This document shows, piece after piece, positions 1,907 to 48,497 of a DNA stretch of 64,000 nucleotides. Each line of letters begins with the position of its first letter. Within the stretch, counting starts at the first letter, position 1. The translations under genes were made by a program, and so were the position numbers. The notes under the pieces are model-generated. The model searched no databases. It was not told the DNA's origin and saw nothing but the letters and a program-made list of their open reading frames with translations. Location of the stretch: the NCBI GenBank assembly GCA_902779915.1, contig CACZDM010000006.1, forward strand, positions 66 through 64,065, in the 5' to 3' direction. The DNA is from Oscillospiraceae bacterium. Lineage in GTDB: Bacteria; Bacillota; Clostridia; Oscillospirales; Ruminococcaceae.

Positions 1907-3229
1907 CTAATCCTCTTTTCTTCGCTCTCGAACAACTATTTTCATCGGAGTTCCAATAAATCCAAACGATTCACGAATTTGATTTTCTAAATATCTTTGA
2001 TATGAAAAATGAAATAATTCCTTTTTATTCACAAAAAAAATAAATGTTGGGGGGGCAACTGAGGCTTGCGTTATATAATATATTTTTAATCTGTGACCCT
2101 TATCCGACGGAGGCTGAACTCTTGAGATTGAATACGCAAGCATTTCATTTAAAGCGCCAGTTGAAATTCTCTTTTGGCTTTGCAAATAAACTTCATCAAT
2201 CAAGCTATATATTTGAGCTAACCTCTGACCAGTTTTGGCAGATATGTATATAAACGGAGCATATGGCATGAAAGAAAAGTCTTTTCTGAGATTTTTATTA
2301 AACTCATTCATCGTTTCGGAATTTTTTTCAACCAAATCCCACTTATTGACAGCAATTATTGAAGCTTTTCCCTTCTCAAGAGCATATCCAGCAATTTTTG
2401 ATTCCTGTTGAGCAAATCCCTCCAGAGCATCAATAACTATCAAACAAACATCCGCCCGATCAACCGCCATATGCGCCCGAATAACACTGTAGCGCTCGAT
2501 GTTTTGGGTTACCCTGGCTTTTCTTCTCATTCCAGCTGTGTCTATGAAAACATATTCTTTACCGCCGCGCCTAATAAAAGTGTCTATTGCGTCTCTTGTT
2601 GTTCCCGCAACGTCCGAAACAATAACCCTATCCTGGCCAACAAGCGCATTAATCAGGGAAGACTTCCCGACATTCGGCCTCCCAACAATCGCAATTTTAA
2701 CCCTATCTTCTAGAAAATCAGAATCCAACCCTTTTTTAAAATGTGATATAACCTCGTCAAGCAAATCTCCAACTCCATGCCCATGAACAGAAGAAACCGG
2801 AAACGGATCACCCTGCGCAAGGTTATAAAATTCATATAATTCAGCAGGAACATCACCAATGCTGTCACATTTATTGACACATAAAACAACGGGCTTTTTG
2901 CTTTTTTTCAACATGTTCGAAATTTCCAGATCTGAAGAATTAACTCCGCTTTTTATGTCAACAACAAAAACTATCACATCCGCATCAGACATTGCAAATT
3001 GCGCCTGGCTTTTCACTTGCTCAAAAATAAACCCGCCGCCATCTTCCAAGCCACCAGTATCGATCAGATTAAATTTAGCGCCCGCCCACTCGCCTTCAGC
3101 ATATATCCTGTCACGAGTCACCCCCGGAGCATCATCAACAATCGAAACGCGTTTTCCAACTATTTTGTTAAACAACGTTGACTTTCCAACATTCGGCCTG
3201 CCTATTATCGCCACAATCGGCATGGACAT
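1907..3229 (-). CDS. der: Ribosome-associated GTPase Der/EngA (two GTPase domains plus KH-like C-terminus)
   Basis: Two GRPNVGKS P-loops, DTAG/DTGG and NKxD motifs. Start moved to the ATG 8 nt after GGAGG (MSMPIVAIIG...). Confidence 0.9.
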   Translation of the reverse strand: MSMPIVAIIGRPNVGKSTLFNKIVGKRVSIVDDAPGVTRDRIYAEGEWAGAKFNLIDTGGLEDGGGFIFEQVKSQAQFAMSDADVIVFVVDIKSGVNSSDLEISNMLKKSKKPVVLCVNKCDSIGDVPAELYEFYNLAQGDPFPVSSVHGHGVGDLLDEVISHFKKGLDSDFLEDRVKIAIVGRPNVGKSSLINALVGQDRVIVSDVAGTTRDAIDTFIRRGGKEYVFIDTAGMRRKARVTQNIERYSVIRAHMAVDRADVCLIVIDALEGFAQQESKIAGYALEKGKASIIAVNKWDLVEKNSETMNEFNKNLRKDFSFMPYAPFIYISAKTGQRLAQIYSLIDEVYLQSQKRISTGALNEMLAYSISRVQPPSDKGHRLKIYYITQASVAPPTFIFFVNKKELFHFSYQRYLENQIRESFGFIGTPMKIVVRERRKED

Positions 3230-9040: not shown

Positions 9041-9277
9041 TCTCCATACCACCTCAATTTTTAATATATTACAGTTTGTCTTTAAACAAATTCCAAATCA
9101 TATACTCCTTAATTATACACCACTAATTTCTAAAAGTCAAGAAAGATAGAATAAAGAGGATTTTTCGGGTTTTCAAACTGATGAAAAAAAACAACTATGT
9201 ATAATAAACAATATTCATGTCAAAAATATATATGCATACCAAAAGTCGAATTTATTGGAAGGGCTTTGAATTTACAT

Positions 9278-10237
9278 ATGAAAATCAATAAAATTTTAAT
9301 TACATCCATTTTTTTAGCATTAATTCCCACACTTGGCCTTGCATCGAAAAATAAAAATCAAGAATTAAATTTTTGGCCAAATGAAACAAAAATTTCAACT
9401 GAAACTGACGAAAATATGTTGAAAATGCCAGTGAAAATAAAAATAAATGACGAAATAATAGACGAAACTTTGGAAGAATATTTAATCGGAGTCGCAGCAG
9501 CAGAAATCTCTCCAACATACCACCCCGAAGCAATCAAAGCCCAAATCATCGCTGCCCACACATATGCCATAAACAGATACGGCCCAAGCGGTCCATATCC
9601 CGCAGACCCATCAATTTTTCAAGCATATCTAACAAAACAACAAAGACGTCAAAAATATCAGGATAATTTTGAAAAATATGAAAACATTTTAAAAAACGCA
9701 GCTCGAAGCGTCGCAAATAAAATAATAACATATGAAAATTTGCCAATAAAAGCCGCTTTCCACTCCATGTCGGCCGGAAAAACCGAAAGCAGCGCAAACG
9801 TTTGGGGAAGCGAAGTTCCATATCTGGTTGAAACAGACAGCCAATTTGAATCAAGCTTAAAAAATTTTCAAACAAAAATTTCAAAAAACATAGACGAATC
9901 TTTCAAAAAAATCAAACAAAAACACCCAAACGCGACCATGCCAAAAAATAGGCAAAATTCAATAAAAATCATCTCAAAAACCCCTGCGCAATATGTTAAA
10001 TCTGCACAAATTTTTGGCGTCGAACTCTCCGGAGCCCAAATCAGATCCGCGCTAAATCTGCCGTCCGCAAGCTTCGACGCTTCGGTTGAAAACCAAAACA
10101 TCATATTCACCTGCAAGGGAAACGGACATGGCGTTGGAATGAGCCAATGCGGCGCAAACCAACTGGCAGCCCAAGGGAAAACATGCGAAGAAATATTAAA
10201 ACATTACTATAAAGGCGTCTCAATCGATTTAATGTGA
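9278..10237 (+). CDS. spoIID: SpoIID/LytB-domain lytic transglycosylase (stage II sporulation protein D-like)
   Basis: Signal/anchor segment, then AAHTYA...FHS.SAGKTE...[10 protein letters not shown] motifs. Start set at the ATG at 9278 that precedes the signal peptide. Confidence 0.8.
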
Positions 10238-13069
10238 ATCTTCTAGAATTTTCTTTAAATACCTGCCAGTGTGTGAATTTTCATTTTCAGCAATTTGCTC
10301 CGGCGTTCCAACTCCAACAACCTCTCCGCCCTTGTCCCCGCCATCCGGACCAAGATCTATAACAAAATCCGCAGTTTTTATGACATCAAGATTGTGTTCA
10401 ATCAGAAGAACTGTGTTTCCCAAGTCAACCAATTTTTGCAAAACACAAATCAATTTATTAACATCGTCCGTGTGAAGCCCGGTTGTTGGCTCGTCCAAAA
10501 TATATATCGTCCTGCCGGTTGACCTTTTGGAAAGCTCAGTCGCAAGCTTAACCCGCTGAGCCTCCCCCCCTGAAAGAGTTGTTGCGGGCTGTCCAAGCTT
10601 AATATACCCCAGCCCAACGTCAAAAAGCGTCTTGAGTTTTCTTTTTATTTTAGGATGGTTTTCGAAAAACAACATAGCTTCTTCAACCGTCATATCTAAT
10701 ATGTCATATATATTCTTGTCTTTATATTTTATTTGTAAAGTTTCTCTATTATATCGCTTACCGGAACAAACTTCACATGGTATATATATATCCGGCAAAA
10801 AATGCATCTCTATTTTGACAATCCCATCGCCCTGACAGTTTTCACACCGACCGCCTTTAACATTAAAACTAAACCTTCCAGCGCCATATCCACGCATTTT
10901 AGCATCATTTGTGTTTGAAAAAAGCTCTCTAACATCATTAAAAATCGATGTGTATGTCCCTGGATTAGAGCGCGGCGTCCTTCCGATCGGACTTTGATCT
11001 ATTCCAATGACCTTGTCCAAATTTTCAAGCCCTTTTGCAGTTTTAAATTCGCCCGCCCTGATTCGAGCTCGATTTAATTTTGCAGCCAAATGCCGGTGAA
11101 TTATTTGATTAACAAGCGAACTTTTGCCCGAGCCAGAAACCCCCGTGACGCAGGTGAACGTTCCTAAATTTATCCTAACATTGATGTTTTTTAGATTATT
11201 TTCACAACATCCGCCAAATTCTAAAAATTTTCCATTTCCTTTTCTTCGACTTTTGGGAATTTCAACGCGCTTTTTGCCGGATAAATACTGGCCAGTTAAA
11301 GAATTTTCACACTTTTGGATATCGCTAACCAATCCATTAAAAACAACCTCTCCGCCATGAACTCCAGGCCCAGGACCTATGTCAACAACCCAATCAGCAG
11401 CACGAATTGTGTCTTCATCGTGTTCAACAACAATCAAAGTATTTCCAATATCTCGAAGTTTTTTTAATGTTTTGATTAATTTATCATTGTCTTTTTGATG
11501 AAGGCCGATTGAGGGCTCGTCCAAAATATACAAAACCCCGATTAATGAAGAGCCAATTTGAGTTGCAAGCCGAATTCGCTGGCTCTCCCCTCCTGAAAGC
11601 GTCCCCGATGAACGCGAAAGTGTCAAATATTCCAGCCCAACCGACTGCAAAAATTTAAGCCTGCTTTTGATTTCTTTCAAAATTAGGTCAGATATTTTAA
11701 TTTCTCTTTGATTCAGCTTCAAATTTTCCAAAAAATCAATCGAATCCTTAACGCTCAAATTTGTTAATTCACTGATATTTTTTTCCCCAACCGTGACATT
11801 CAAAATAACCGGATTCAGCCTGGCTCCACCGCATTCCGGACAAACGACCTCGTTCATATAGTCAGAAATTTCGTTTTTAGTCCACTCGCTCTTGCTTTCT
11901 TTAAATCTCCTCTCCAAATTGTTGACAATTCCCTCAAAAGCGACCTCATAGGTTCCGCTGGTGTATTTAGTGTTTCGAGATATTTTGATTCGTTTGCCAT
12001 TTGTTCCATATAGCAAAATTTTTTTGACTTTTTTCGAAAGTTTGCGATATGGAGAATCCAGAGAAAAGTCATATTCTTTCGCCAGGGCATCATAATACAT
12101 CGTTGCCACACTATTTTTTTCACCATACGCCCAACCTGGCCCTTTGATTGCTCCTTCTTGGATTGATAAATCTTCGTTTGGAATGATTAATTTTGGGTCT
12201 ATTTTAGTGAATGTCCCAATACCCAAACAGGATTTGCAGGCTCCATATGGATTGTTAAATGAAAACATCCTCGGCGTCAATTCCTCGATCGAAACGTCGT
12301 GATCAACGCAGGCATAGTCTTGAGAAAACAAAATGTCCTGCCCGTCCTGCAAAGCGACAATAACCAGCCCCCCCGAAATTTTAAAAACAGTTTCCAAACT
12401 GTCCGCAAGCCTTGATTTAATCCCTTCCTTTATTATTAGCCGATCAACAACGATTTCTATGGCGTGTTTTTTGTTTTTATCAAGGTCAATTTGCTCCGAA
12501 AGGTCATATAAAATTCCGTCAACACGAACCCGAATAAACCCGCTTTTTCTCGCAAAATCCAATTCTTTAACATGCTCCCCTTTTTTGCCACGAACGATTG
12601 GCGCCAGAAGCTGAATTTTTGTTCCTGGAGAAAGCTCTAAAACTCGGTCAACTATTTGGTCGATTGTTTGGTGTTGGATCTGCTTTTTACATATCGGACA
12701 GTGGGGAATTCCAATCCGAGCATATAAAAGTCTTAAATAGTCATATATTTCAGTCACAGTTCCAACGGTTGACCTGGGATTTTTAGACGTTGTTTTTTGA
12801 TCTATGGAAATTGCGGGCGACAATCCTTCAATATAGTCAACATTTGGTTTTTCCATCTGCCCCAAAAATTGCCGCGCATATGATGAAAGGCTCTCCATAT
12901 ATCGCCTCTGGCCGTCTGCAAATATTGTGTCAAAAGCCAGCGAACTCTTTCCCGATCCAGAAACTCCAGTGAAAACAATCATTTTGTCGCGCGGAATCTC
13001 CAAGTCAACACTTTTCAAATTATTTTCTTTAGCGCCTTTAATAATTATCTTTTTTTTCATAATTTTCAC
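10229..13069 (-). CDS. uvrA: Excinuclease ABC subunit A
   Basis: 946 aa, two ABC ATPase modules (GVSGSGKSS twice, LSGGE signature twice) and zinc-finger Cys clusters. Its 3' end overlaps spoIID by 9 nt (convergent). Confidence 0.95.
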
Positions 13070-17347: not shown

Positions 17348-17423
17348 GCTGGTGTAGCTCAGTTGGTAGAGCAGCTGATTTGTAATCAGCAGGTCGGGGG
17401 TTCAAGTCCGTCCACCAGCTCCA
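17348..17423 (+). tRNA. tRNA-Thr (anticodon UGU), CCA encoded
   Basis: Cloverleaf by eye: acceptor GCTGGTG/CACCAGC, anticodon stem GCTGA/TCAGC with loop TTTGTAA. One G-G mismatch in the T stem. Confidence 0.85.
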
Positions 17424-17436
17424 TTTTGAATTATTT

Positions 17437-17521
17437 GGGAGATTTCCCGAGCGGCCAAAGGGGGCAGACTGTAAATCTGTTGCTTTATGCTTCGGTGGTT
17501 CGAATCCACCATCTCCCACCA
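17437..17521 (+). tRNA. tRNA-Tyr (anticodon GUA), long variable arm, CCA encoded
   Basis: Acceptor GGGAGAT/ATCTCCC, anticodon loop CTGTAAA, T arm GGTGGTTCGAATCCACC, 85 nt. Confidence 0.85.
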
Positions 17522-37886: not shown

Positions 37887-37960
37887 TGGAGGCGACGACC
37901 AGATTCGAACTGGTGATCAGGGTGTTGCAGACCCATGCCTTACCTCTTGGCTACATCGCC
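37887..37960 (-). tRNA. tRNA-Cys (anticodon GCA), CCA encoded
   Basis: Reverse complement GGCGATGTAGCCAAGAGG...CTGCAAC...GGTTCGAATCTGGTCGTCGCCTCCA folds as a cloverleaf. Confidence 0.85.
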
Positions 37961-37962
37961 AT

Positions 37963-38038
37963 TGGAGCGGGTTACGAGACTCGAACTCGCCACCTCCACC
38001 TTGGCAAGGTGGCGCTCTACCGGATGAGCTAAACCCGC
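37963..38038 (-). tRNA. tRNA-Gly (anticodon GCC), CCA encoded
   Basis: Reverse complement GCGGGTTTAGCTCATCCGGTAGAGCGCCACCTTGCCAAGGTGG...AACCCGCTCCA; anticodon stem CCACC/GGTGG. Confidence 0.9.
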
Positions 38039-39923: not shown

Positions 39924-40844
39924 CTAATTCTGCTTCTCGTGTAAAACCACTACTTCTTCCTCTTCATGCGCCTCGTTCAGCACTACGACATCTTCCTCTT
40001 CTTCATGCGCCGCGTTCAGCACTACAACGTCTTCTTCTTCGTCATGCGCCGCGTTCAGCACCACAACGTCTTCTTCTTCGTCATGCGCCGCGTTCAGCAC
40101 TACAACGTCTTCTTCTTCGTCATGCGCCGCGTTCAGCACTACGACATCTTCCTCTTCGTCATGCGCCGCGTTCAGCACTACAGCGTCTTCTTCTTCACCA
40201 TGCGCCGCGTTCAGCACCACAACGTCTTCTCCTTCACCATGCGCCGCGTTCAGCACCACAACGTCTTCTCCTTCGTCATGCGCTGCATTCAGCACCACAA
40301 CGTCTTCTTCTTCGTCATGCGTCGCGTTCAGCACCACAACGTCTTCTCCTTCGTCATGCGCTGCATTCAGCACCACAACGTCTTCTTCTTCGTCATGCGC
40401 CGCATTCAGCATCACAACGTCTTCTTCTTCGTCATGCGCCGCGTTCAGCACCACAACGTCTTCCTCAGCGTCATGCGCCGCGTTCAGCACTACAACGTCT
40501 TCCTCAGCGTCATGCGCCGCCTTCAGCACCACAACGTCTTCCTCAGCGTCATGCGCCTCGTGCAGCACCACAACGTCTTCCTCAGCGTCATGCGCCGCAT
40601 TCAGCACCACAACGTCTTCCTCAGCGTCATGCGCCGCGTTCAGCACTACAACGTCTTCTTCTTCACCATGCGCCGCATTCAGCACCACAACGTCTTCTCC
40701 TTCGTCATGCGCCTCATTCAGCACCACAACGTTTTTTTCTTTCTCGCTATCAGCATAAACTGCACTATTAAAAGCATGTATGGGCGAAACACCCGCAACA
40801 ATCAAAAAACAAGTCAACTTTGAAACCAGTTTTTTTAACACCAT
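39924..40844 (-). CDS. Secreted acidic tandem-repeat protein: signal peptide plus about 20 copies of VVVLNAAHDEEED
   Basis: ATG 9 nt after GGAGG, hydrophobic signal sequence (..CFLIVAGVSPIHAFNS), then 13-aa repeats to the C-terminus. Confidence 0.7.
   Translation of the reverse strand: MVLKKLVSKLTCFLIVAGVSPIHAFNSAVYADSEKEKNVVVLNEAHDEGEDVVVLNAAHGEEEDVVVLNAAHDAEEDVVVLNAAHDAEEDVVVLHEAHDAEEDVVVLKAAHDAEEDVVVLNAAHDAEEDVVVLNAAHDEEEDVVMLNAAHDEEEDVVVLNAAHDEGEDVVVLNATHDEEEDVVVLNAAHDEGEDVVVLNAAHGEGEDVVVLNAAHGEEEDAVVLNAAHDEEEDVVVLNAAHDEEEDVVVLNAAHDEEEDVVVLNAAHDEEEDVVVLNAAHEEEEDVVVLNEAHEEEEVVVLHEKQN
39939..40730 (-). repeat. 39-bp tandem repeat array, about 20 units, in frame within the CDS
   Basis: Plus-strand unit GTCATGCGCCGCGTTCAGCACCACAACGTCTTCTTCTTC, with point variants mainly in the acidic-codon part. 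Confidence 0.95.
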
Positions 40845-40883
40845 TAAAAGCAACCTCCGTTTAATAAAAAATTCACGCCCCTG

Positions 40884-40961: not shown

Positions 40962-42449
40962 TCAACAATCTTCAATCCTGCCTCCATTTAAAACCACTGT
41001 TGCGCATCCACCACTATACACAGCGCCCCTGCCTTCAGCTTTACATCTTTTAATGCTGCTATTTGCATTTATGGTTACCTTTCCGTTGAGAACATCTATG
41101 GCTCCGCCCTCTCCAGCTTGACAGTCACTAATGCTGCTGTTTTGGTTCATAAAAACGTTTCCATTAAGAACATCTATCGCTCCGCCATACTCCGCTTCAC
41201 AATCGCTAATCATGCTATTTCCGTTCATAGACACATCGCCTTTTCTAACATATATAGCTCCGGCTTCCATGCCTTTACACTTGCTAATCTTGCTTTTTCC
41301 GTTCATTTCCACCAAACCGTAAAAAACGCATATTGCTCCATTACGCCTGGTTTTACACCCACTGATCTCACTGCTTGCATTCATAAAAACCTTTCCCTCA
41401 TCAACAAGTATTGCCTCAGTGCGACTGAATTCACGGCCAACAACCCTGCAGTTTTCGTTCATATTTACTGTTCCGCTTTCCAAACATATCGCCCATCCGC
41501 CAAAATCAGCAGCCTCACAACCAACAATTTCGCTGTTTTGGTTCAAACTAACCGTTGCGCTCTTTCCATATATCGCTCCGCCGCCGCAACCAGCCCTGCA
41601 AGAACTAATCCTGCTTTTCCCATACATGTTCACTGTTCCGCTTTTAACGGATATGGCGCCTCCGCTTTTTTGTGACCCACATTCAACAATGCTGCTGTTT
41701 GCGTTCAGATTGATGCAGACTGAGCTTTGCGCACATATTGCCCCTCCATTTTTATCCACACAATCCACACCCTTTTGCGCAATAAGCGTCTCGATCCAGT
41801 CGCGACTTTCAACAAAACATCCGCTAATAACACTGTCATCGTTCATATTGACCACAGTCGAGCTCTCAGCAAATATGGCTCCCCCGTTGATCAAGGAACA
41901 AAATCCTTCGATGCTGCTGCTTCCATTTAAATTCAAAACCGATTTTTGCCCTTCTGAAGGCGCGCCCAGATGTATGCAACTGCTTTGTCTGGTCAGACCA
42001 TGACGAGAACTGACCCTAACATCATTTAAATTAACAACGCAATCACTAGCACGCAAAAAAAGCAAATCACGTTTGCAATCGGTTATCTTTTTCCCATGAC
42101 CATTTATGTTGATCGTCATGCCCTTAAATCTTGAATCAGTAAAATTAAAAATATAATCTCCCCCTGGATCCATGCCACAAGCGCCATTATCCAAACCCAA
42201 AACGTCATAGCCTATATAAATGTCATCACACAATTCGATGTTAATGGCGTTCACGTCATCAAGACCAGCCAATTCGCAATCAAGCCAGCCTTTAACATCC
42301 TCAATTTTGCTTAATTTCAAATTTATCTCCCCCGCGGCATAAACCACTCCAGCAGCCATATTAAGCAGAAAAACCATCATAAAACAAACCAAAACCAAGA
42401 AAAATTTTCTCAGTCCACTTTTTAAAATAAACCTTTGCCTAAACTTCAT
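40962..42449 (-). CDS. Secreted PMP-like parallel beta-helix repeat protein (paralog P1)
   Basis: Signal peptide, shared N-domain (YIFNFTDSRFKGMTININ, LLFLRA..C.V.L.DV), then about 12 coils of the type GGAI.V..G.V.MN.NS.IS.C.A. Start at the ATG 8 nt after GGAG. Confidence 0.7.
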   Translation of the reverse strand: MKFRQRFILKSGLRKFFLVLVCFMMVFLLNMAAGVVYAAGEINLKLSKIEDVKGWLDCELAGLDDVNAINIELCDDIYIGYDVLGLDNGACGMDPGGDYIFNFTDSRFKGMTININGHGKKITDCKRDLLFLRASDCVVNLNDVRVSSRHGLTRQSSCIHLGAPSEGQKSVLNLNGSSSIEGFCSLINGGAIFAESSTVVNMNDDSVISGCFVESRDWIETLIAQKGVDCVDKNGGAICAQSSVCINLNANSSIVECGSQKSGGAISVKSGTVNMYGKSRISSCRAGCGGGAIYGKSATVSLNQNSEIVGCEAADFGGWAICLESGTVNMNENCRVVGREFSRTEAILVDEGKVFMNASSEISGCKTRRNGAICVFYGLVEMNGKSKISKCKGMEAGAIYVRKGDVSMNGNSMISDCEAEYGGAIDVLNGNVFMNQNSSISDCQAGEGGAIDVLNGKVTINANSSIKRCKAEGRGAVYSGGCATVVLNGGRIEDC

Positions 42450-42726: not shown

Positions 42727-42773
42727 CGAATTTTCAAAACATATTTTAAATTATTTTGTTAGGAGGATTTGTT

Positions 42774-45700
42774 ATGTCACATTCATTAAAAATTATTTTA
42801 AATGGCGGATTAAAAAGGCTAATTTCAAGTTTAATTTGTTTGTCCATGGTTTTATCGACTTTTCCATTATTGTTGCTTAAAAGCATGGTTTGCGCAGGCG
42901 GTGATGATACTGCAACTATTACACTGAGTAATTTAAATGACTGTAATAATTTAAATAGCAATTTGTCAACTGCCAACCTGAACGGTAAAACAACTATAAA
43001 TATTGTTATAGGCACAAATTTTACTATTGACAACACATCGACTCCAACAATGACTACTGGTTCTGGGAATAAATACCTTTTCGATTTCACCGACAATAGA
43101 TTTAAGGACAAAACTATAAATATATCGGGAAATTCAACTCCGAGATCAATAAGTATATCAGATCCGAATTTGTTTTTCCTGTGTATGAAGTATGCAACAG
43201 TAAATTTACAAGACATAATAATTAACGGACAAGGTCAAAACAGGCCGGGAGCTTTTATTAATTTGCAAAAAAGCGGAAACTCAATTCCAATATTAAACGT
43301 GGGCAAAGGTGTAAAAATTCAAAATTGCATCAATAAAGGAAACGATGGAACCTCTGGACAAGACGGGGAGGATGCTTTGGGAGGCGCAATATATTGCAAA
43401 GGCGGTCAAGTGACAATTGGCGTTGGCAGTGGCGTCAATCTTGCCAGCAACGCGCAAATTACTTCATGTCAAGCTATTGGAGGAAATGGCGGAAAAGGAG
43501 CAGATGGAGTGTGGGGATGCGATGGCCAAGACGGCGGCAATGGCGGCAGAGGCAAAGGCGGAGCGATTTATTGCTGTGGCGGCGGAAAAATTGTCCTCAA
43601 TAACGGAACAATTAGCAATTGTTTAAGCGTGTATGGAGATGGAGGAGATGGAGGAGATGGAGGAGATGGAGGAGATGCACTTCCAACCACAAGCGTTAAA
43701 AAACTAACGTATAGTATATACTATGTATATTATGAAAATACTACGGAAACGAAAAAAGAAAGATTAAATATCACCCAACTGGAAAACGGCGGCAATGGGG
43801 GACGTGGCGGCAATGGGGGACGTGGCGGCAATGGGGGACGCGGCAGCAATGGCAAAAGCGCAAAAAACTCTGATCCCAATTGGAATACCAAAAGCAAGTT
43901 AATAGAACTAGATTCAGGTATTAAGCACCGTGACCAATGTGATGGATTTAGTGGCGGAAACGGAGGAAACGGTGGCGACGGTGGCATGGGAACAGAAACT
44001 AAAGGCGGAGACGGCGGAGACGGCGGAAAAGGTGGAATGGGAAACTTATTAGGATGTGGAGGTAACGGAGGTAATGGTGGTAATGGTGGTAATGGTGGTA
44101 ATGGTGGTAATGGTAATTATAATTATCTTGATAAAACCATTTACGATGACCTAAATACTAAATCGATAAACTCATTTTTTCTCAACTTTTCACTTCCTGA
44201 ATACAAATCTATTAACCATGGTGGCAATGGTGGCAATGGTGGCAATGGTCACAATGGCGGCAATGGCGGCAATGGTGGTATTGGAGCACAGAAAATAATT
44301 ATAAACTCTATGATTATGCCTGATAATCAACTCATATTTTACGCTTCTAGCGGAAACGGCGGAAGCGGCGGCATGGGAATCAACGCAGGAAACGGCGGCA
44401 AGGCCGGAATGTTGATCGTGTCAAGGTGGACAAAAAACAAACACGAAATTATAAAGGTAAAGGATGATAACAGTATGGTTGGCAAAGCCGGCCAAGAAGG
44501 ACACGTGATTGAAAAAGAAACAGTGCCAATTATCGGATTTTATGAAGAAGGCGGCGGCGGTGGAGGCGCGATATGCATTGAAGATGGAGAATTAAGACTA
44601 ATGGACGGCAAAATTGAAAACTGTTCATCTAATGAGAGAGGAAGCAATATCTTTATTGGACCCTATGTTAAGTGTAGTTTTAGCACAGATTTAGTAATTT
44701 CTAAACCGTCCCAATTTAAAAATCCTAATGACCAAAACAGAACATTGTCAGTTAGTGATTTACAAAAATACTATAATTCTCCCCAAGATAAAACGATTGG
44801 ATATCCCGGAGTTTATTGCAGCAGTCATTTTAGACAAGCATATTATAAACTGGTTTTTGTTAATGCTGACGATCCTTCAGAAAAATTATATGTTCAAGAT
44901 TTTGCAACCGAGAGAAACGGCTATATTGTTCCCAGCAGACCCGGATATAAATTCAATAAACTGACATATGGCGATGACAATAAAGATATTGAAACAAAAC
45001 AAACAGGTGATACGTATACGTTCGATTTAAACGACAATATTATTAATACTGAAAAAAATTGGGTTATAACTCTTAAAGCTAAATACGATAAACTATACAC
45101 AATAAATTATATTTGTAAAAATAAGCGTATCAGATCAGCAAAAGATCAAACAATTGGTCTTTCCTTTGATCTTGCGAATCCTGTTCCAAAGGATGATGCA
45201 TTTGAGAAAGCAATCGAGCCAGACCAGGGTTATAAATTTTCTAAAATCACCTATGGCCGTGATAATGTTCCAATTCCCAAAGAAGGCCTAACCCGTGATG
45301 GGTTGATAAATCAAGCTGATGGCGATGTGATAACGTTCATGATAAATCATGAGCCAAAACAATACAGTTTGGAATATGTTGATGAAAATAAAGACCCCAT
45401 GACCGTTAAAGACTTGGATGGCAATCAAGCCGATTCGCAACAAGTCAAATTCGGCGATGATATTAAAACAATGACGCCTAAGGATGAAAAACTGGGATAT
45501 GATTTTAAATGCTGGCATGTTTTGGATAAAAATGGAAATGAATTGAAGGAGAAGGGCCAACCGATTGACTTCGAAACAGCAAAAGCTTCTTGGAAAACTT
45601 TATCAAATGCTGCTGATGATGATAATAAAATAAAATTAAAAGCGGTCTACACGCCAAAAAAATATATTATAAAATATAACACAAGGAGTGACAAGACTAT

Positions 45701-45950
45701 TTATGATAAGGAATTTTATATTGGCAAGGATAAAGACTCACAATTAGACCAAAAAATTGCGAATAGCTACATCTCAAAGGCATATTCAAACGGCAGAACT
45801 AAAAATACTATTAGTAATAAATATTGGAAATATGGCGTAAATGGTTCATTTGATGCAAACAATAAACCAACTTGGAGAGAATTGATAAAAAGCGCGATTG
45901 TTGACGAATACGGCAACAACCTGATCATTTTGGAAGCTGTATATCAATAA
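42774..45950 (+). CDS. Large secreted protein (paralog P2): shared N-domain, GGAIY beta-helix coils interrupted by GGN/GGD glycine-rich blocks, C-terminal Listeria/Bacteroides-type (Flg_new-like) repeats
   Basis: ATG 7 nt after AGGAGG, signal peptide LKRLISSLICLSMV, KYLFDFTDNRFKDKTINI, GGAIYC motifs, G-rich blocks, GY.F..(W/L) repeat modules. Confidence 0.75.
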   Translation: MSHSLKIILNGGLKRLISSLICLSMVLSTFPLLLLKSMVCAGGDDTATITLSNLNDCNNLNSNLSTANLNGKTTINIVIGTNFTIDNTSTPTMTTGSGNKYLFDFTDNRFKDKTINISGNSTPRSISISDPNLFFLCMKYATVNLQDIIINGQGQNRPGAFINLQKSGNSIPILNVGKGVKIQNCINKGNDGTSGQDGEDALGGAIYCKGGQVTIGVGSGVNLASNAQITSCQAIGGNGGKGADGVWGCDGQDGGNGGRGKGGAIYCCGGGKIVLNNGTISNCLSVYGDGGDGGDGGDGGDALPTTSVKKLTYSIYYVYYENTTETKKERLNITQLENGGNGGRGGNGGRGGNGGRGSNGKSAKNSDPNWNTKSKLIELDSGIKHRDQCDGFSGGNGGNGGDGGMGTETKGGDGGDGGKGGMGNLLGCGGNGGNGGNGGNGGNGGNGNYNYLDKTIYDDLNTKSINSFFLNFSLPEYKSINHGGNGGNGGNGHNGGNGGNGGIGAQKIIINSMIMPDNQLIFYASSGNGGSGGMGINAGNGGKAGMLIVSRWTKNKHEIIKVKDDNSMVGKAGQEGHVIEKETVPIIGFYEEGGGGGGAICIEDGELRLMDGKIENCSSNERGSNIFIGPYVKCSFSTDLVISKPSQFKNPNDQNRTLSVSDLQKYYNSPQDKTIGYPGVYCSSHFRQAYYKLVFVNADDPSEKLYVQDFATERNGYIVPSRPGYKFNKLTYGDDNKDIETKQTGDTYTFDLNDNIINTEKNWVITLKAKYDKLYTINYICKNKRIRSAKDQTIGLSFDLANPVPKDDAFEKAIEPDQGYKFSKITYGRDNVPIPKEGLTRDGLINQADGDVITFMINHEPKQYSLEYVDENKDPMTVKDLDGNQADSQQVKFGDDIKTMTPKDEKLGYDFKCWHVLDKNGNELKEKGQPIDFETAKASWKTLSNAADDDNKIKLKAVYTPKKYIIKYNTRSDKTIYDKEFYIGKDKDSQLDQKIANSYISKAYSNGRTKNTISNKYWKYGVNGSFDANNKPTWRELIKSAIVDEYGNNLIILEAVYQ
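43635..43676 (+). repeat. 9-bp in-frame microsatellite (GGAGATGGA x about 4.7) encoding (GDG)n
   Basis: Read directly from the sequence. Confidence 0.9.
43788..43841 (+). repeat. 18-bp in-frame tandem repeat x3 (GGCGGCAATGGGGGACGT) encoding GGNGGR x3
   Basis: Read directly from the sequence. Confidence 0.9.
44058..44117 (+). repeat. 9-bp in-frame microsatellite (GGTAATGGT, 5 perfect units plus degenerate flanks) encoding (GNG)n
   Basis: Read directly; the perfect units span 44070-44114. Confidence 0.9.
44220..44279 (+). repeat. 9-bp in-frame repeat (GGTGGCAAT / GGCGGCAAT, about 6.5 units) encoding (GGN)n
   Basis: Read directly from the sequence. Confidence 0.9.
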
Positions 45951-46052: not shown

Positions 46053-48497
46053 TTAAGCGTTTCCAAAAAAACTCTGATTTGTAATAACGGAGCCGCTTTC
46101 GTATGCTATGCCATTGACATAGGAAGGATTTTTTGGAGAAGACTTTTTCGCTTCTTGAGGCTCGATCTTTTCGTATGTGGCTCTGAGAACGATCACATTA
46201 TTGCCTGCCGAATCAACCATTGCGCTTTTTATTAATGTGTCCCATGTGACTCCATTAACATCCGCATCACTTCCGTCAGGTTGGGTATATACCCACTTTT
46301 TAAATTCATAACCTAATTTACTTGGTTTTGTAGAAGATACTTCAACATAAGAGTTAAGATTTTTATCTTGACTAATTGTGTAAGTTGTGGGATCAACCAC
46401 ATCTGTGCTATATGGATTATATTTTATAGTATATGTTTTTGGCGCGTAGACCGCTTTTAATTTTATGGTGTTATTATCATCAGCAGCATTTGCTAAAGTT
46501 TCCCAAGAAGCTTTTGCCGTTTCAAAGTCAATAGGATCGCCATTATCCTTCAATTCATTTCCATCACTGCCCAAAACATGCCAGCATTTAAAATCATATC
46601 CCAGTTTTTTAAATGGGGTGACTGCTTTAATGTCTTCGCCGAACTTGACTTCTTGAGTTTGAATTTGAGAACCGCCGGCATCAGTAACATTTATAGATGT
46701 GGTACCGTCCTCATCCATATACATTATGTTATATGTTCTTGGCTCATGATTTAAAAAAATAGATATCACATCACCAACTGCAGCTTGACTCAAGCTGTCC
46801 CAAATTGTCGCAGTGTCTCCCGAAGCAACATACTTCAAAGCGTCGCCATAAGTAATTTCCGAAAATGTATAACCAAGCTTTGGCGTTGCTATTTCATTAA
46901 GTTTTTTATTGTCATCCACAGCGATATTATTCCAATTAGCATCCATAATCGCGCTAATGAGCGTTTGATCGCGTATACAGTCTTTCTTTGTTGCAACAAC
47001 TTTATTGTCATAAATATATTGGATTGTATATATTTTTTTATACGTGGCGGTTAAAGTTATCACGCCATCCTGCTTTGCGTTTTGTATAATATCACCGTCT
47101 AATTTAAATTTATTATCCGCCACATCTATTGAGTTTTCTCCTTCATCATTTAAGCTAATAAGTCTATATCCTGCTCTCTCAGGAACACACACATCAGAAT
47201 ACTTGGTGAACATTCCTTGCCCTAATTTTTCACTCGTACCAGCCTCAACAAACTGAATGTTATAATTTGGATTTGCTCGAACAATTCCATCATCATTATA
47301 AATTCCTTTATATCCATAAACTTCATTAGCCGTGCTATTGTGGTCGCAGGAAGCGTGCTCCTCAGGCAATACAATAGTTAACAGTTCTAATTGTGTATAC
47401 GGAAGCATCAAAACGCCTTTATTATATATAGCATCTGCGCGTTCAGTTTCCTCTTCAGAAAAAGTGACATGACAACCAGTAATATAGCATTTGTTAATAG
47501 TTAATGCTCCAGTACTGTTGTTATATATAGCGCCTCCAAAATCATTGGCAAAACAGTTCTCAATTTTGCCACTGTCAATAGTCACCACTCCAACACTGTC
47601 GTTATATATTGCTCCACCAACACTCGCATTTTGACCTTCTGATATGTTAATGTGACCATTAATCGAGCTTTCTCCCGCAATTATCAGCTGATTAAGGTTA
47701 TATATAGCACCTCCACTTTTCACGCAAGCACAATCGTTAATCTCGCATTTTTCATCCATTATCAATATTCCAGTGTTATATACCGCGCCTCCGCACCCGT
47801 TTTCGCCCTCACAAGTGCAATTACTAATTTTACTGTTTTGTAAAAACTTCAAATTTCCAGCATTGTTTATCGCGCCTCCATAGCCACTTTGCTCAGAATT
47901 ACAACAATCTTGAATGGTTGATGAACGTGTTTCTAGTTCCGACGCCAGCCCAACATTAATGAAAGCGCCTGCTCTTTCTATTGCACTATCACTTCGGCCA
48001 TCAATCACAATATTTTTCAAAATAACTTTGCAATTTTGCATATTCAAGAAAAATAAAGCAGCATTATCTATGGTTATTGTGCTGCGTCCTCCACTTTTTG
48101 TCCCATCTATAGTTATCGTTTTATCTTTAAATCGCTTATCAGTGAAATCAAAAAGATATTTATTTCCATCACTCCCGGTCGTCATTGTTGGAACATTATC
48201 CACTGTATAGGAGGAATTGACGTTAATATCTTCGGTTACATTAATAACTATTTCATCTGGCGCATCATCCGCAACCAAGGCAGTCTTGCTCAAAGGGCCC
48301 TCTGTTTCACTCATCCAAGTGGCCACACTACCGATCTTGTCTGATTTCAGTTCAATAGTTATGTCAGAATCCGTTGCCCAAACCGATCCTTGAAACATAT
48401 GCATTGGAAAAGTTGCCGAAACCATCATCAAATAAATTAAAGTTGAAATTAATCTTTTTAAGCCGCCCTTTAAATTAATTTTTAATAAACCTTGCAT
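46053..48497 (-). CDS. Large secreted PMP-like beta-helix protein (paralog P3) with C-terminal Listeria/Bacteroides-type repeats
   Basis: ATG after GGAGAGG, signal peptide LKRLISTLIYLMMV, KYLFDFTDKRFKDKTITI, six or more GGAIYN/GGAINN coils. The C-terminal half is collinear with P2. Confidence 0.75.
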   Translation of the reverse strand: MQGLLKINLKGGLKRLISTLIYLMMVSATFPMHMFQGSVWATDSDITIELKSDKIGSVATWMSETEGPLSKTALVADDAPDEIVINVTEDINVNSSYTVDNVPTMTTGSDGNKYLFDFTDKRFKDKTITIDGTKSGGRSTITIDNAALFFLNMQNCKVILKNIVIDGRSDSAIERAGAFINVGLASELETRSSTIQDCCNSEQSGYGGAINNAGNLKFLQNSKISNCTCEGENGCGGAVYNTGILIMDEKCEINDCACVKSGGAIYNLNQLIIAGESSINGHINISEGQNASVGGAIYNDSVGVVTIDSGKIENCFANDFGGAIYNNSTGALTINKCYITGCHVTFSEEETERADAIYNKGVLMLPYTQLELLTIVLPEEHASCDHNSTANEVYGYKGIYNDDGIVRANPNYNIQFVEAGTSEKLGQGMFTKYSDVCVPERAGYRLISLNDEGENSIDVADNKFKLDGDIIQNAKQDGVITLTATYKKIYTIQYIYDNKVVATKKDCIRDQTLISAIMDANWNNIAVDDNKKLNEIATPKLGYTFSEITYGDALKYVASGDTATIWDSLSQAAVGDVISIFLNHEPRTYNIMYMDEDGTTSINVTDAGGSQIQTQEVKFGEDIKAVTPFKKLGYDFKCWHVLGSDGNELKDNGDPIDFETAKASWETLANAADDNNTIKLKAVYAPKTYTIKYNPYSTDVVDPTTYTISQDKNLNSYVEVSSTKPSKLGYEFKKWVYTQPDGSDADVNGVTWDTLIKSAMVDSAGNNVIVLRATYEKIEPQEAKKSSPKNPSYVNGIAYESGSVITNQSFFGNA

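Follow-up and report, generated by a model that had tools for sequence, protein, structure and literature searches.

Glycine-triplet runs alternating with strain-variable segments in a predicted surface protein from an uncultured member of the rumen Ruminococcaceae

The gene analyzed here, P2, lies in a stretch of 64,000 nucleotides (hereafter the window; contig CACZDM010000006.1 of assembly GCA_902779915.1) from an uncultured Ruminococcaceae bacterium of the rumen. The central part of its product, about 310 residues long, is composed of runs of Gly-X-X triplets separated by segments of other composition. The runs are maintained in orthologs, the segments between them are exchanged even between strains of one species, and three of the DNA arrays that encode the runs change by single repeat units between strains that are otherwise almost identical. 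We propose that P2 is a secreted surface protein and that its central part is a diversification module, in which a glycine scaffold would present strain-variable segments; we regard this proposal as an even call.

Architecture of the module

Eight strict Gly-X-X runs are found between residues 236 and 544 of P2 (236-263, 288-300, 339-360, 391-406, 411-423, 427-447, 483-504 and 527-544, numbered from the ATG), and a ninth short run, GNDGTSGQDGED, at residues 189-200, stands upstream of the module. A preliminary description of this DNA had counted six glycine-rich blocks, because three of the runs had been merged into one; the sequences that it quoted for the blocks are correct. Its start of block 1 at 43480 has to be moved to the first codon, at 43479, and its range of 22-37 amino acids (aa) for the separating segments becomes 22-38 aa for the long spacers (38, 30, 35 and 22 aa), in addition to which there are two short connectors. 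The absence of the module from the two neighbouring paralogs, P1 and P3, also stated there, was confirmed by paralog comparison, P3 having ordinary GGAIY rungs of a beta-helix at the corresponding place. In the following list the numbering of six blocks is kept, type A is the allele of the window and type B an alternative allele of the same species.

43479..43562 (+), glycine block 1: residues 236-263, ten unbroken G-X-X triplets, between an 'SCQA' element and the second GGAIY rung
43635..43677 (+), glycine block 2, corresponding to array R1: left edge of the strain-variable cassette
43674..43787 (+), variable segment 1: 38 aa (38-51 aa across alleles and orthologs), unalignable between types A and B and between species
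43788..43853 (+), glycine block 3, corresponding to array R2
43854..43943 (+), variable segment 2: 30 aa (8-30 aa in orthologs), sequence unconserved
43944..44114 (+), glycine blocks 4a, 4b and 4c: three runs with connectors of 3-5 residues, holding the short array 44004-44027 and array R3
44115..44219 (+), variable segment 3: 35 aa (15-35 aa in orthologs), alignment columns mostly gapped
44220..44285 (+), glycine block 5, corresponding to array R4
44286..44351 (+), variable segment 4: 22 aa, with a conserved F-Y at its end
44352..44405 (+), glycine block 6 (GNGGSGGMG..GNGGKAG): contains the short array 44350-44371
43670..44481 (+), strain-variable cassette: the two types cannot be aligned here within the species, blastn alignments ending at both coordinates

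Conservation of the glycine runs among orthologs

Five orthologous sequences were aligned: the window allele, the type-B allele, the intact 1100-aa protein of contig L010, the protein of contig L011 and the last module of a 2570-aa relative (L012/L016). Two of these are the alleles of the window species, two come from RUG13514 and one from RUG14392. Although the orthologs in the comparison are only 45-65% identical, the order of the glycine runs, their approximate length and their triplet phase are common to all five, lengths agreeing within a few triplets. Glycine occupies 52 of 52 phase-0 positions in P2 of the window and 46 of the 52 are invariant across the five orthologs; gapped columns amount to 1 of 116 in the blocks versus 48 of 142 in the spacers, and the majority fraction is 0.84 in the former versus 0.53 in the latter, figures that alignment of low-complexity sequence may inflate. 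Block 1 measures 28 aa in four of the five, with all ten phase-0 glycines invariant, and its central residues VWGC are strain-variable, being KLGC in type B. The three-run unit 4a/4b/4c is present in every ortholog, with runs of 16-19, 13-15 and 21-26 aa.

The preliminary description had suggested that conserved glycine blocks alternate with variable segments. This is in fact what the five orthologs display, since run order, length and phase are fixed and the spacers diverge both in sequence and in length; the spacing of the module is thus conserved as far as the order and the lengths of its runs are concerned.

Tandem arrays in the DNA encoding the runs

Arrays were called with Tandem Repeats Finder:

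R1, 43635-43677: 9 base pairs (bp), unit GGAGATGGA, 4.8 copies, 100% matches
R2, 43788-43852: 18 bp, unit GGCGGCAATGGGGGACGT, 3.6 copies, 95% matches, perfect part 43788-43841
Short array, 44004-44027: 9 bp, 2.7 copies, 100% matches
R3, 44057-44114: 9 bp, unit GGTGGTAAT, 6.4 copies, 93% matches, perfect part 44070-44114
R4, 44218-44278: 9 bp, 6.8 copies, 88% matches, interrupted

Four perfect arrays had been described; three of them do have perfect cores, while the fourth (44218-44278) is interrupted. The repetition in the DNA of P2 surpasses what the repeated protein alone imposes. When the protein was synonymously re-encoded with the codon usage of the window, none of 2000 resamplings matched the observed perfect tracts, the longest of which measure 45 nucleotides (nt) at period 9 and 53 nt at period 18. 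The codon unit differs from one glycine block to another (GGA-GAT-GGA; GGC-GGC-AAT-GGG-GGA-CGT; GGT-GGT-AAT; GGT-GGC-AAT), which suggests that each block was expanded separately and in place.

Copy-number differences between near-identical strains

Ten metagenomic contigs of the window species were reached through the exact sequence of the neighbouring gene P3 and its close variants; exact database look-ups of P2 and of the L001 allele returned no record. The reading frame of P2 is intact in all ten. Five of them, the window included, are of type A. Compared with the window over 7-18 kb per contig, with a neighbouring gene made of 39-bp repeats excluded, the other four show 0-4 single-nucleotide polymorphisms (SNPs), and the repeat units are as follows:

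Window: R1 5 units, R2 3 units, R3 6 units
L001: R1 4, R2 2, R3 5; 0 SNPs outside the 39-bp repeat gene
L002: R1 4, R2 2, R3 5; 3 SNPs in 15.3 kb, none of them within 13 kb of P2
L009: R1 5, R2 3, R3 5; 4 SNPs in 7 kb
L014: R1 5, R2 3, R3 6, the alleles of the window; 2 SNPs in 7 kb

Three of the four arrays originally named thus differ by exactly one unit between near-identical strains, which confirms the earlier idea that slippage would alter the length of the protein and keep its frame. Repeat numbers at R1, R2 and R3 are therefore not fixed: among the five type-A sequences, the window included, changes are always of one unit, always in frame and always multiples of 9 bp. Copy number differing between near-isogenic strains, by which simple-sequence contingency loci and variable numbers of tandem repeats (VNTR) are recognized, is found in all three. 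The interrupted R4 and the short two-copy arrays, including 44350-44371, showed no length variation among the five type-A sequences. The three variable arrays could act as strain markers.

Assembly of short reads across repeats could in principle produce such differences. Every comparison sequence is a metagenome assembly, contig L006 is gapped inside the P2 gene, and contigs break at the neighbouring 39-bp repeat gene. We nevertheless consider an artefact very unlikely, because the arrays concerned, 43-65 bp long and never above 65 bp, are exceeded in length by typical reads and by the k-mers that the contig names record for the assemblies (k141, k87), and because the assemblies of two separate samples (L001, L002) arrived independently at one allele set; moreover, the window set was found again in L014.

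Replacement of the central cassette within the species

One and the same species holds at least two alternative central cassettes of P2. Contigs L005, L007, L008 and L013 encode the type-B protein of 1156 aa, and L006 is apparently of type B too, its gene being gapped. Type-B DNA follows the window with 99-100% identity as far as about 43670, inside the GGD array, and near-identity resumes from about 44481-44990. Expressed as DNA identity between the two types, the flanks give 0.99-1.00 and the interior of the cassette 0.10-0.54; the flanking genes of the type-B contigs are 99.4% identical to those of the window (flank range 99.4-100%). In the type-B cassette the glycine runs are retained, the spacers are different and about 110 aa are added, a hydrophobic hairpin of 40-50 aa among them. 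The proposed alternation with variable segments is therefore met again among strains of a single species, as unalignable alternative cassettes.

Some features of the type-B allele were observed in passing. In L005 (12548-16018, minus strand) a hydrophobic hairpin of 40-50 aa, at protein residues 583-633, follows immediately after the last glycine run, with Kyte-Doolittle values of 2.2-2.7. A comparable hairpin occurs in L011 (residues 642-680) and in L003 (9962-11734); the window allele and L010 have none. Possibly it anchors the middle part of the protein in a membrane. An origin from frameshifted glycine-repeat DNA was rejected, as the other frames are filled with stops and are not rich in glycine. 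In L008, which otherwise carries an identical type-B allele, 12 mismatches are clustered within 90 bp (gene positions 2913-3002, about 45686-45775 of the window). This patch looks like gene conversion, to judge from the clustering; no donor was present among the compared loci, the best match being 91%.

Predicted structure

An AlphaFold2 model of P2 residues 40-700, computed from an 11-row alignment, has a confident N-terminal beta-helix. When residues 60-320 were modelled from a 25-row alignment that included Gly-hairpin sequences, the mean predicted local distance difference test (pLDDT) was 87.7 and the predicted template modelling score (pTM) 0.84, and triplets of strands were formed. In this second model block 1 (236-259) reaches a pLDDT of 90-98 and the upstream run at residues 189-200 one of 95, and neither is assigned to helix or strand. 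Such a model fits an ordered block 1 in a conformation similar to polyproline-II or polyglycine-II (PGII). The top matches of the P2 model in Foldseek are right-handed beta-helix enzymes and tailspikes, all of them non-significant.

Distribution of the family

The family of P2 is very narrow in the sequence collections that were searched. A repeat-free P2 profile recovered 8 clusters among 5.8 billion proteins, none of them full-length P2; an exhaustive HMMER search of 1.84 billion representatives gave 30 matches, none on the module; and among the GTDB species representatives relatives were found only in two rumen metagenome-assembled genomes (MAGs) named 'Ruminococcaceae bacterium', RUG13514 and RUG14392. 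Searches of JGI metagenomes with protein patterns and a 30-nt DNA pattern found no relatives, a word-indexed search with the whole of P2 was swamped by glycine words and gave nothing useful, and a profile of the unit 'rung plus Gly hairpin' recovered only 11 short fragments. Full-length P2 proteins (1031-1156 aa) were called on ENA contigs, yet they are absent from the collection of 5.8 billion proteins and from the exact look-up; in that collection only the glycine-free fragments P0012, P0013 and P0017 are present. P2-type proteins break assemblies, and such modules may be systematically under-sampled.

In the relatives each rung of the beta-helix ends in 'NCxA', which is followed by paired GGX runs around a short non-glycine stretch and then by the next 'GGAIY'. 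The same layout of rung and glycine hairpin is found in proteins probably of other phyla (the 3872-aa P0034 and the fragments P0044-P0054). The hairpin 'N(C)xA, GGxGGxGG..., GGAIY' was also seen in the database proteins P0001, P0036 and P0043, and the 3872-aa example has an N-terminal subtilase. A glycine hairpin between beta-helix rungs is thus apparently a widespread theme. A search of the literature on glycine-rich Pmp-like beta-helix proteins in Firmicutes found nothing relevant, and no description of the theme was found. Gly-triplet hairpins are no peculiarity of P2 and belong to a wider family and to Pmp-like beta-helices of other phyla. Judging from the layout of these proteins, block 1 is one instance of the widespread hairpin, and what is specific to the P2 subfamily is the set of blocks 2-6 with their long variable spacers. 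An origin of the long spacers as degenerate rungs found no support: a hidden Markov model (HMM) built from 33 rungs matches only residues 203, 262 and 597, which are the three GGAI rungs of P2, and no spacer.

The 2570-aa relative, from RUG13514, is composed of three tandem beta-helix modules, nearly every rung of which carries long GGT/GGN/GGS hairpins (for example, an array of 9 bp in 15.7 copies), the last module being similar to P2. It is encoded at 13273-20985 of L016 (minus strand) and identically at 94-7410 of L012; L016 therefore provides no second allele.

Explanations for the module

The mechanism that we propose has several steps. The glycine runs would make up an ordered scaffold of polyglycine-II type, joined to the beta-helix, as the AlphaFold2 model hints in the case of the first run only, and the variable segments would be displayed on this scaffold as surface loops. 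Slipped-strand mispairing would lengthen or shorten single runs by one triplet or one hexapeptide, and homologous recombination, anchored in the conserved DNA of the runs and in the flanks, would swap or delete the segments between them. The likely payoff would be strain-specific variation of the surface, through which ligand binding would be altered or phages, predators or antibodies evaded. In uncultured commensals, metagenome contigs alone have resolved surface variation at two levels, by slippage of units and by replacement of cassettes.

Several observations weigh against this proposal. The P2 ortholog on contig L003 of a related species (9051-11734) passes from block 1 straight on to block 6 and has a frameshift, the loss of the module being either a true deletion between the DNA stretches of two glycine runs or an assembly collapse, and the P2 gene is interrupted in L011; as far as these sequences tell, the module is dispensable, or decaying, in some lineages. 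The four type-B contigs show no variation of repeat number in spite of a perfect array of 9 bp in 6 copies. On the structural side, the pLDDT of the longer AlphaFold2 model is about 30 over residues 288-595, a stretch that had no alignment row, so that neither disorder nor a fold is indicated. In Foldseek the snow-flea and springtail antifreeze proteins (E-values 0.63-0.9) and a gp38-domain protein (E-value 0.35) are non-significant, and between P2 and any solved PGII protein there is no significant similarity of sequence or fold. The suggested link to gp38, to the snow-flea antifreeze protein and to PE_PGRS repeats consequently found no significant support in the sequence and profile searches of the PDB, in the exhaustive HMMER search or in Foldseek.

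The main rival to the diversification module is that the glycine runs are flexible, disordered linkers of low complexity, acting as stalk or spacer, with repeat and cassette changes drifting in a nearly neutral way and with neither scaffold nor binding loops. Part of the evidence just given suits it, namely the low pLDDT, which covers residues 288-548 of the module where the alignment had no coverage, and the deletion in L003 and interruption in L011. Moreover, phmmer and profile searches of all PDB chains returned only artificial GGS linkers, low-complexity tails and similar stretches, and neither gp38 nor an antifreeze protein, and the perfect DNA arrays imply recent expansions. This explanation is weakened by the conservation of the runs in number, order, length and phase at 45-65% identity despite slippage-prone DNA (46/52 glycines invariant, 1/116 columns gapped), whereas such linkers are normally free to vary in length, and by the modelling of block 1 and of the upstream run as ordered once an alignment covers them (pLDDT 90-98); we hold it to be possible but rather doubtful. 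Another view is that the module is a part of the beta-helix in decay, whose GGAIY rungs were lost under relaxed selection on the way to a pseudogene. At the place of the module P3 carries five ordinary rungs, in L003 the orthologs of both P2 and P3 are broken by stops and frameshifts, and the P2 gene of L011 is interrupted. With the frame intact in all ten contigs of the window species, all three length changes in multiples of 9 bp, the glycine phase strictly conserved, and the module retained in both the intact 1100-aa ortholog and the 2570-aa relative, decay appears unlikely.

Two known classes of glycine-rich repeats were also considered, and both were rejected. Glycine at every third position of every run would be expected of a collagen-like triple helix, as in BclA and Scl, and BclA is polymorphic in repeat number. 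P2 has no match to the Pfam Collagen family (PF01391), its runs comprise only 3-10 triplets and are broken by segments of 22-38 aa, proline makes up 1.3% of the module, and there is no sign that a Pmp-like beta-helix trimerizes; we regard a collagen-like structure as highly improbable. Still less probable is that the GGD and GGN runs are calcium-binding beta-roll repeats of RTX type (PF00353). The runs are rich in Gly and Asp, and GGxGx[DN]xUx is loosely matched at two isolated places, residues 239 and 296; the period is of 3 or 6 residues, not 9, tandem nonapeptides with a hydrophobic eighth position are absent, and there is no HemolysinCabind match. With these set beside it, the diversification module remains the explanation that we prefer.

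The P2 gene and its neighbourhood

The remaining features of P2 and its two paralogs are the following:

42774..45950 (+), P2 gene: 1058 aa from the ATG, alternative TTG start at 42756, from the list of open reading frames (ORFs)
42774..42896 (+), predicted Sec-type signal peptide or N-terminal anchor: a basic n-region precedes the hydrophobic residues 15-41
42951..43634 (+), N-terminal domain and right-handed beta-helix rungs: includes the GGAIY rungs at residues 203 and 262; AlphaFold2
44553..44633 (+), final beta-helix rung (GGGGGGAICIEDGELRLMDGKIENCSS): coil HMM independent E-value 8e-6, kept in all orthologs
44841..45947 (+), probable C-terminal repeats of Listeria-Bacteroides type (Flg_new-like): homologous to the region of P3 that matches PF09479
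40962..42449 (-), P1: shorter paralog with beta-helix only, match to the Chlam_PMP repeat at 23.8 bits versus a cut-off of 20.6
46053..48497 (-), P3: paralog with 43% identity to P2, ordinary GGAIY rungs in place of the glycine module

The ATG start agrees with the start common to P1 and P3 and with the gene calls on related contigs. Hydropathy over residues 15-41, with a Kyte-Doolittle peak of 2.18 after a basic stretch, fits a signal peptide, from which export and a cleavage site are predicted. P2 itself matches no Pfam family at E<=0.1 and no NCBIfam family. For PF09479 (Flg_new), P2 gives no match and P3 a sub-threshold one (E-value 5e-5, 23.7 bits versus a cut-off of 27); precomputed matches to this family exist for the orthologs P0010 and P0011. 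The GC content, 38%, is that of a low-GC Firmicute host.

A stretch of 242 bp is shared by P2 (45438-45679) and P3 (46417-46655), which converge in orientation, with 85.5% identity, forming an inverted repeat about 740 bp apart, which could mediate conversion or inversion. In L003 the ortholog of P3 (11848-14302) is split into at least five ORFs by stops and frameshifts, as a pseudogene or by assembly collapse. P1 contains tandem repeats of 78 bp at 41080-41306 (2-3 copies, 75-80% matches), which correspond to beta-helix rungs. The neighbouring gene of 39-bp repeats (39924-40853, minus strand) has about 20 copies with 91% matches and encodes a signal peptide followed by acidic units of 13 aa (HDAEEDVVVLNAA). 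The length of its product ranges from 134 aa (L003) through 241 aa (L005) and 281 aa (L011) to 309 aa (window), and several contigs break off within this gene. tRNA genes were noted as two pairs, at 37890-38038 (minus strand) and 17348-17518 (plus strand), the former just past the gene for an amino-acid permease at the border of the P1-P3 cluster.

Comparison with known systems

Repeat number is polymorphic between strains in surface proteins such as Bacillus BclA, in its collagen-like region, and those with staphylococcal SD repeats. P2 resembles these VNTR proteins in that copy number varies between strains and the frame is kept, and differs from them in having several short independent arrays within one module, together with replacement of the whole cassette. 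With the Pmp proteins of Chlamydia type it shares GGAI(Y) rungs and a predicted right-handed beta-helix, and glycine-rich turns before GGAI occur in Pmp-like proteins of other phyla. It departs from Pmp (PF02415) in lacking a Pfam match, in having 'IxNC' instead of FxxN, in the absence of an autotransporter barrel and in its Gram-positive host.

Few natural polyglycine-II scaffolds are known to us: gp38, the springtail antifreeze proteins, the Obg N-domain and the predicted PGRS domains. The snow-flea and springtail antifreeze proteins, which are polyproline-II bundles, have the Gly-X-X periodicity of P2, and block 1 (GGNGGKGADGVWGCDGQDGGNGGRGKGG) is similar to them in composition, but they are small stand-alone bundles of 81-126 aa that do not match P2 in sequence.

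For PGRS domains, published models fold GGX triplets into PGII helices of 3-5 triplets, the first glycine of the triplet being strictly kept and in-frame GGX insertions and deletions being tolerated (PMC10216338). PE_PGRS proteins are thus similar to P2 in their GGN/GGD/GGX triplets, in a surface location, which for P2 is predicted, in in-frame indel polymorphism and in retention of the first triplet glycine (PMC10216338). They differ from it in that P2 lacks both a PE domain and an ESX-type context, belongs to a low-GC Firmicute, gave no HMMER match on the module, and has its runs split by long non-glycine segments and embedded in a beta-helix protein.

A further similar design is that of gp38, the adhesin of phages T2, T6, S16 and PP01. 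In gp38 a beta-helix is followed by a PGII sandwich with hypervariable loops; conserved glycine-rich motifs form the core, hypervariable segments radiate from it, and recombination takes place at the conserved motifs (PMC12892980, PMC3157838). P2 likewise has a beta-helix and then an alternation of conserved glycine-rich motifs and hypervariable segments; variation sits in the segments of either protein, and the conserved motifs and the flanks serve as anchors of exchange, for P2 by our proposal (PMC3157838, PMC12892980). What separates the two is size and setting, a phage tail-fibre tip of about 260 aa versus a cellular surface protein of 1058 aa, and the lack of detectable homology in sequence or fold; moreover, the runs of P2 are simple GGX arrays encoded by slippage-prone DNA, and a PGII fold and receptor binding are for P2 conjectural. 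We therefore treat the likenesses to gp38 and to PGRS domains as analogies of design and not as membership. Tentatively, and with less confidence than we place in the diversification module itself, P2 and its relatives might be seen as an independently evolved cellular counterpart of the gp38 design, with a beta-helix carrying a PGII sandwich, helix lengths tuned by slippage and loops swapped as cassettes through recombination in the DNA of the glycine runs, giving strain-specific surfaces for binding or evasion. Were this the case, they would form the first polyglycine-II scaffold family described in Firmicutes; the P2 locus is, at any rate, a candidate for such a family in gut and rumen Firmicutes, with a layout of conserved runs and variable segments that can be directly tested.

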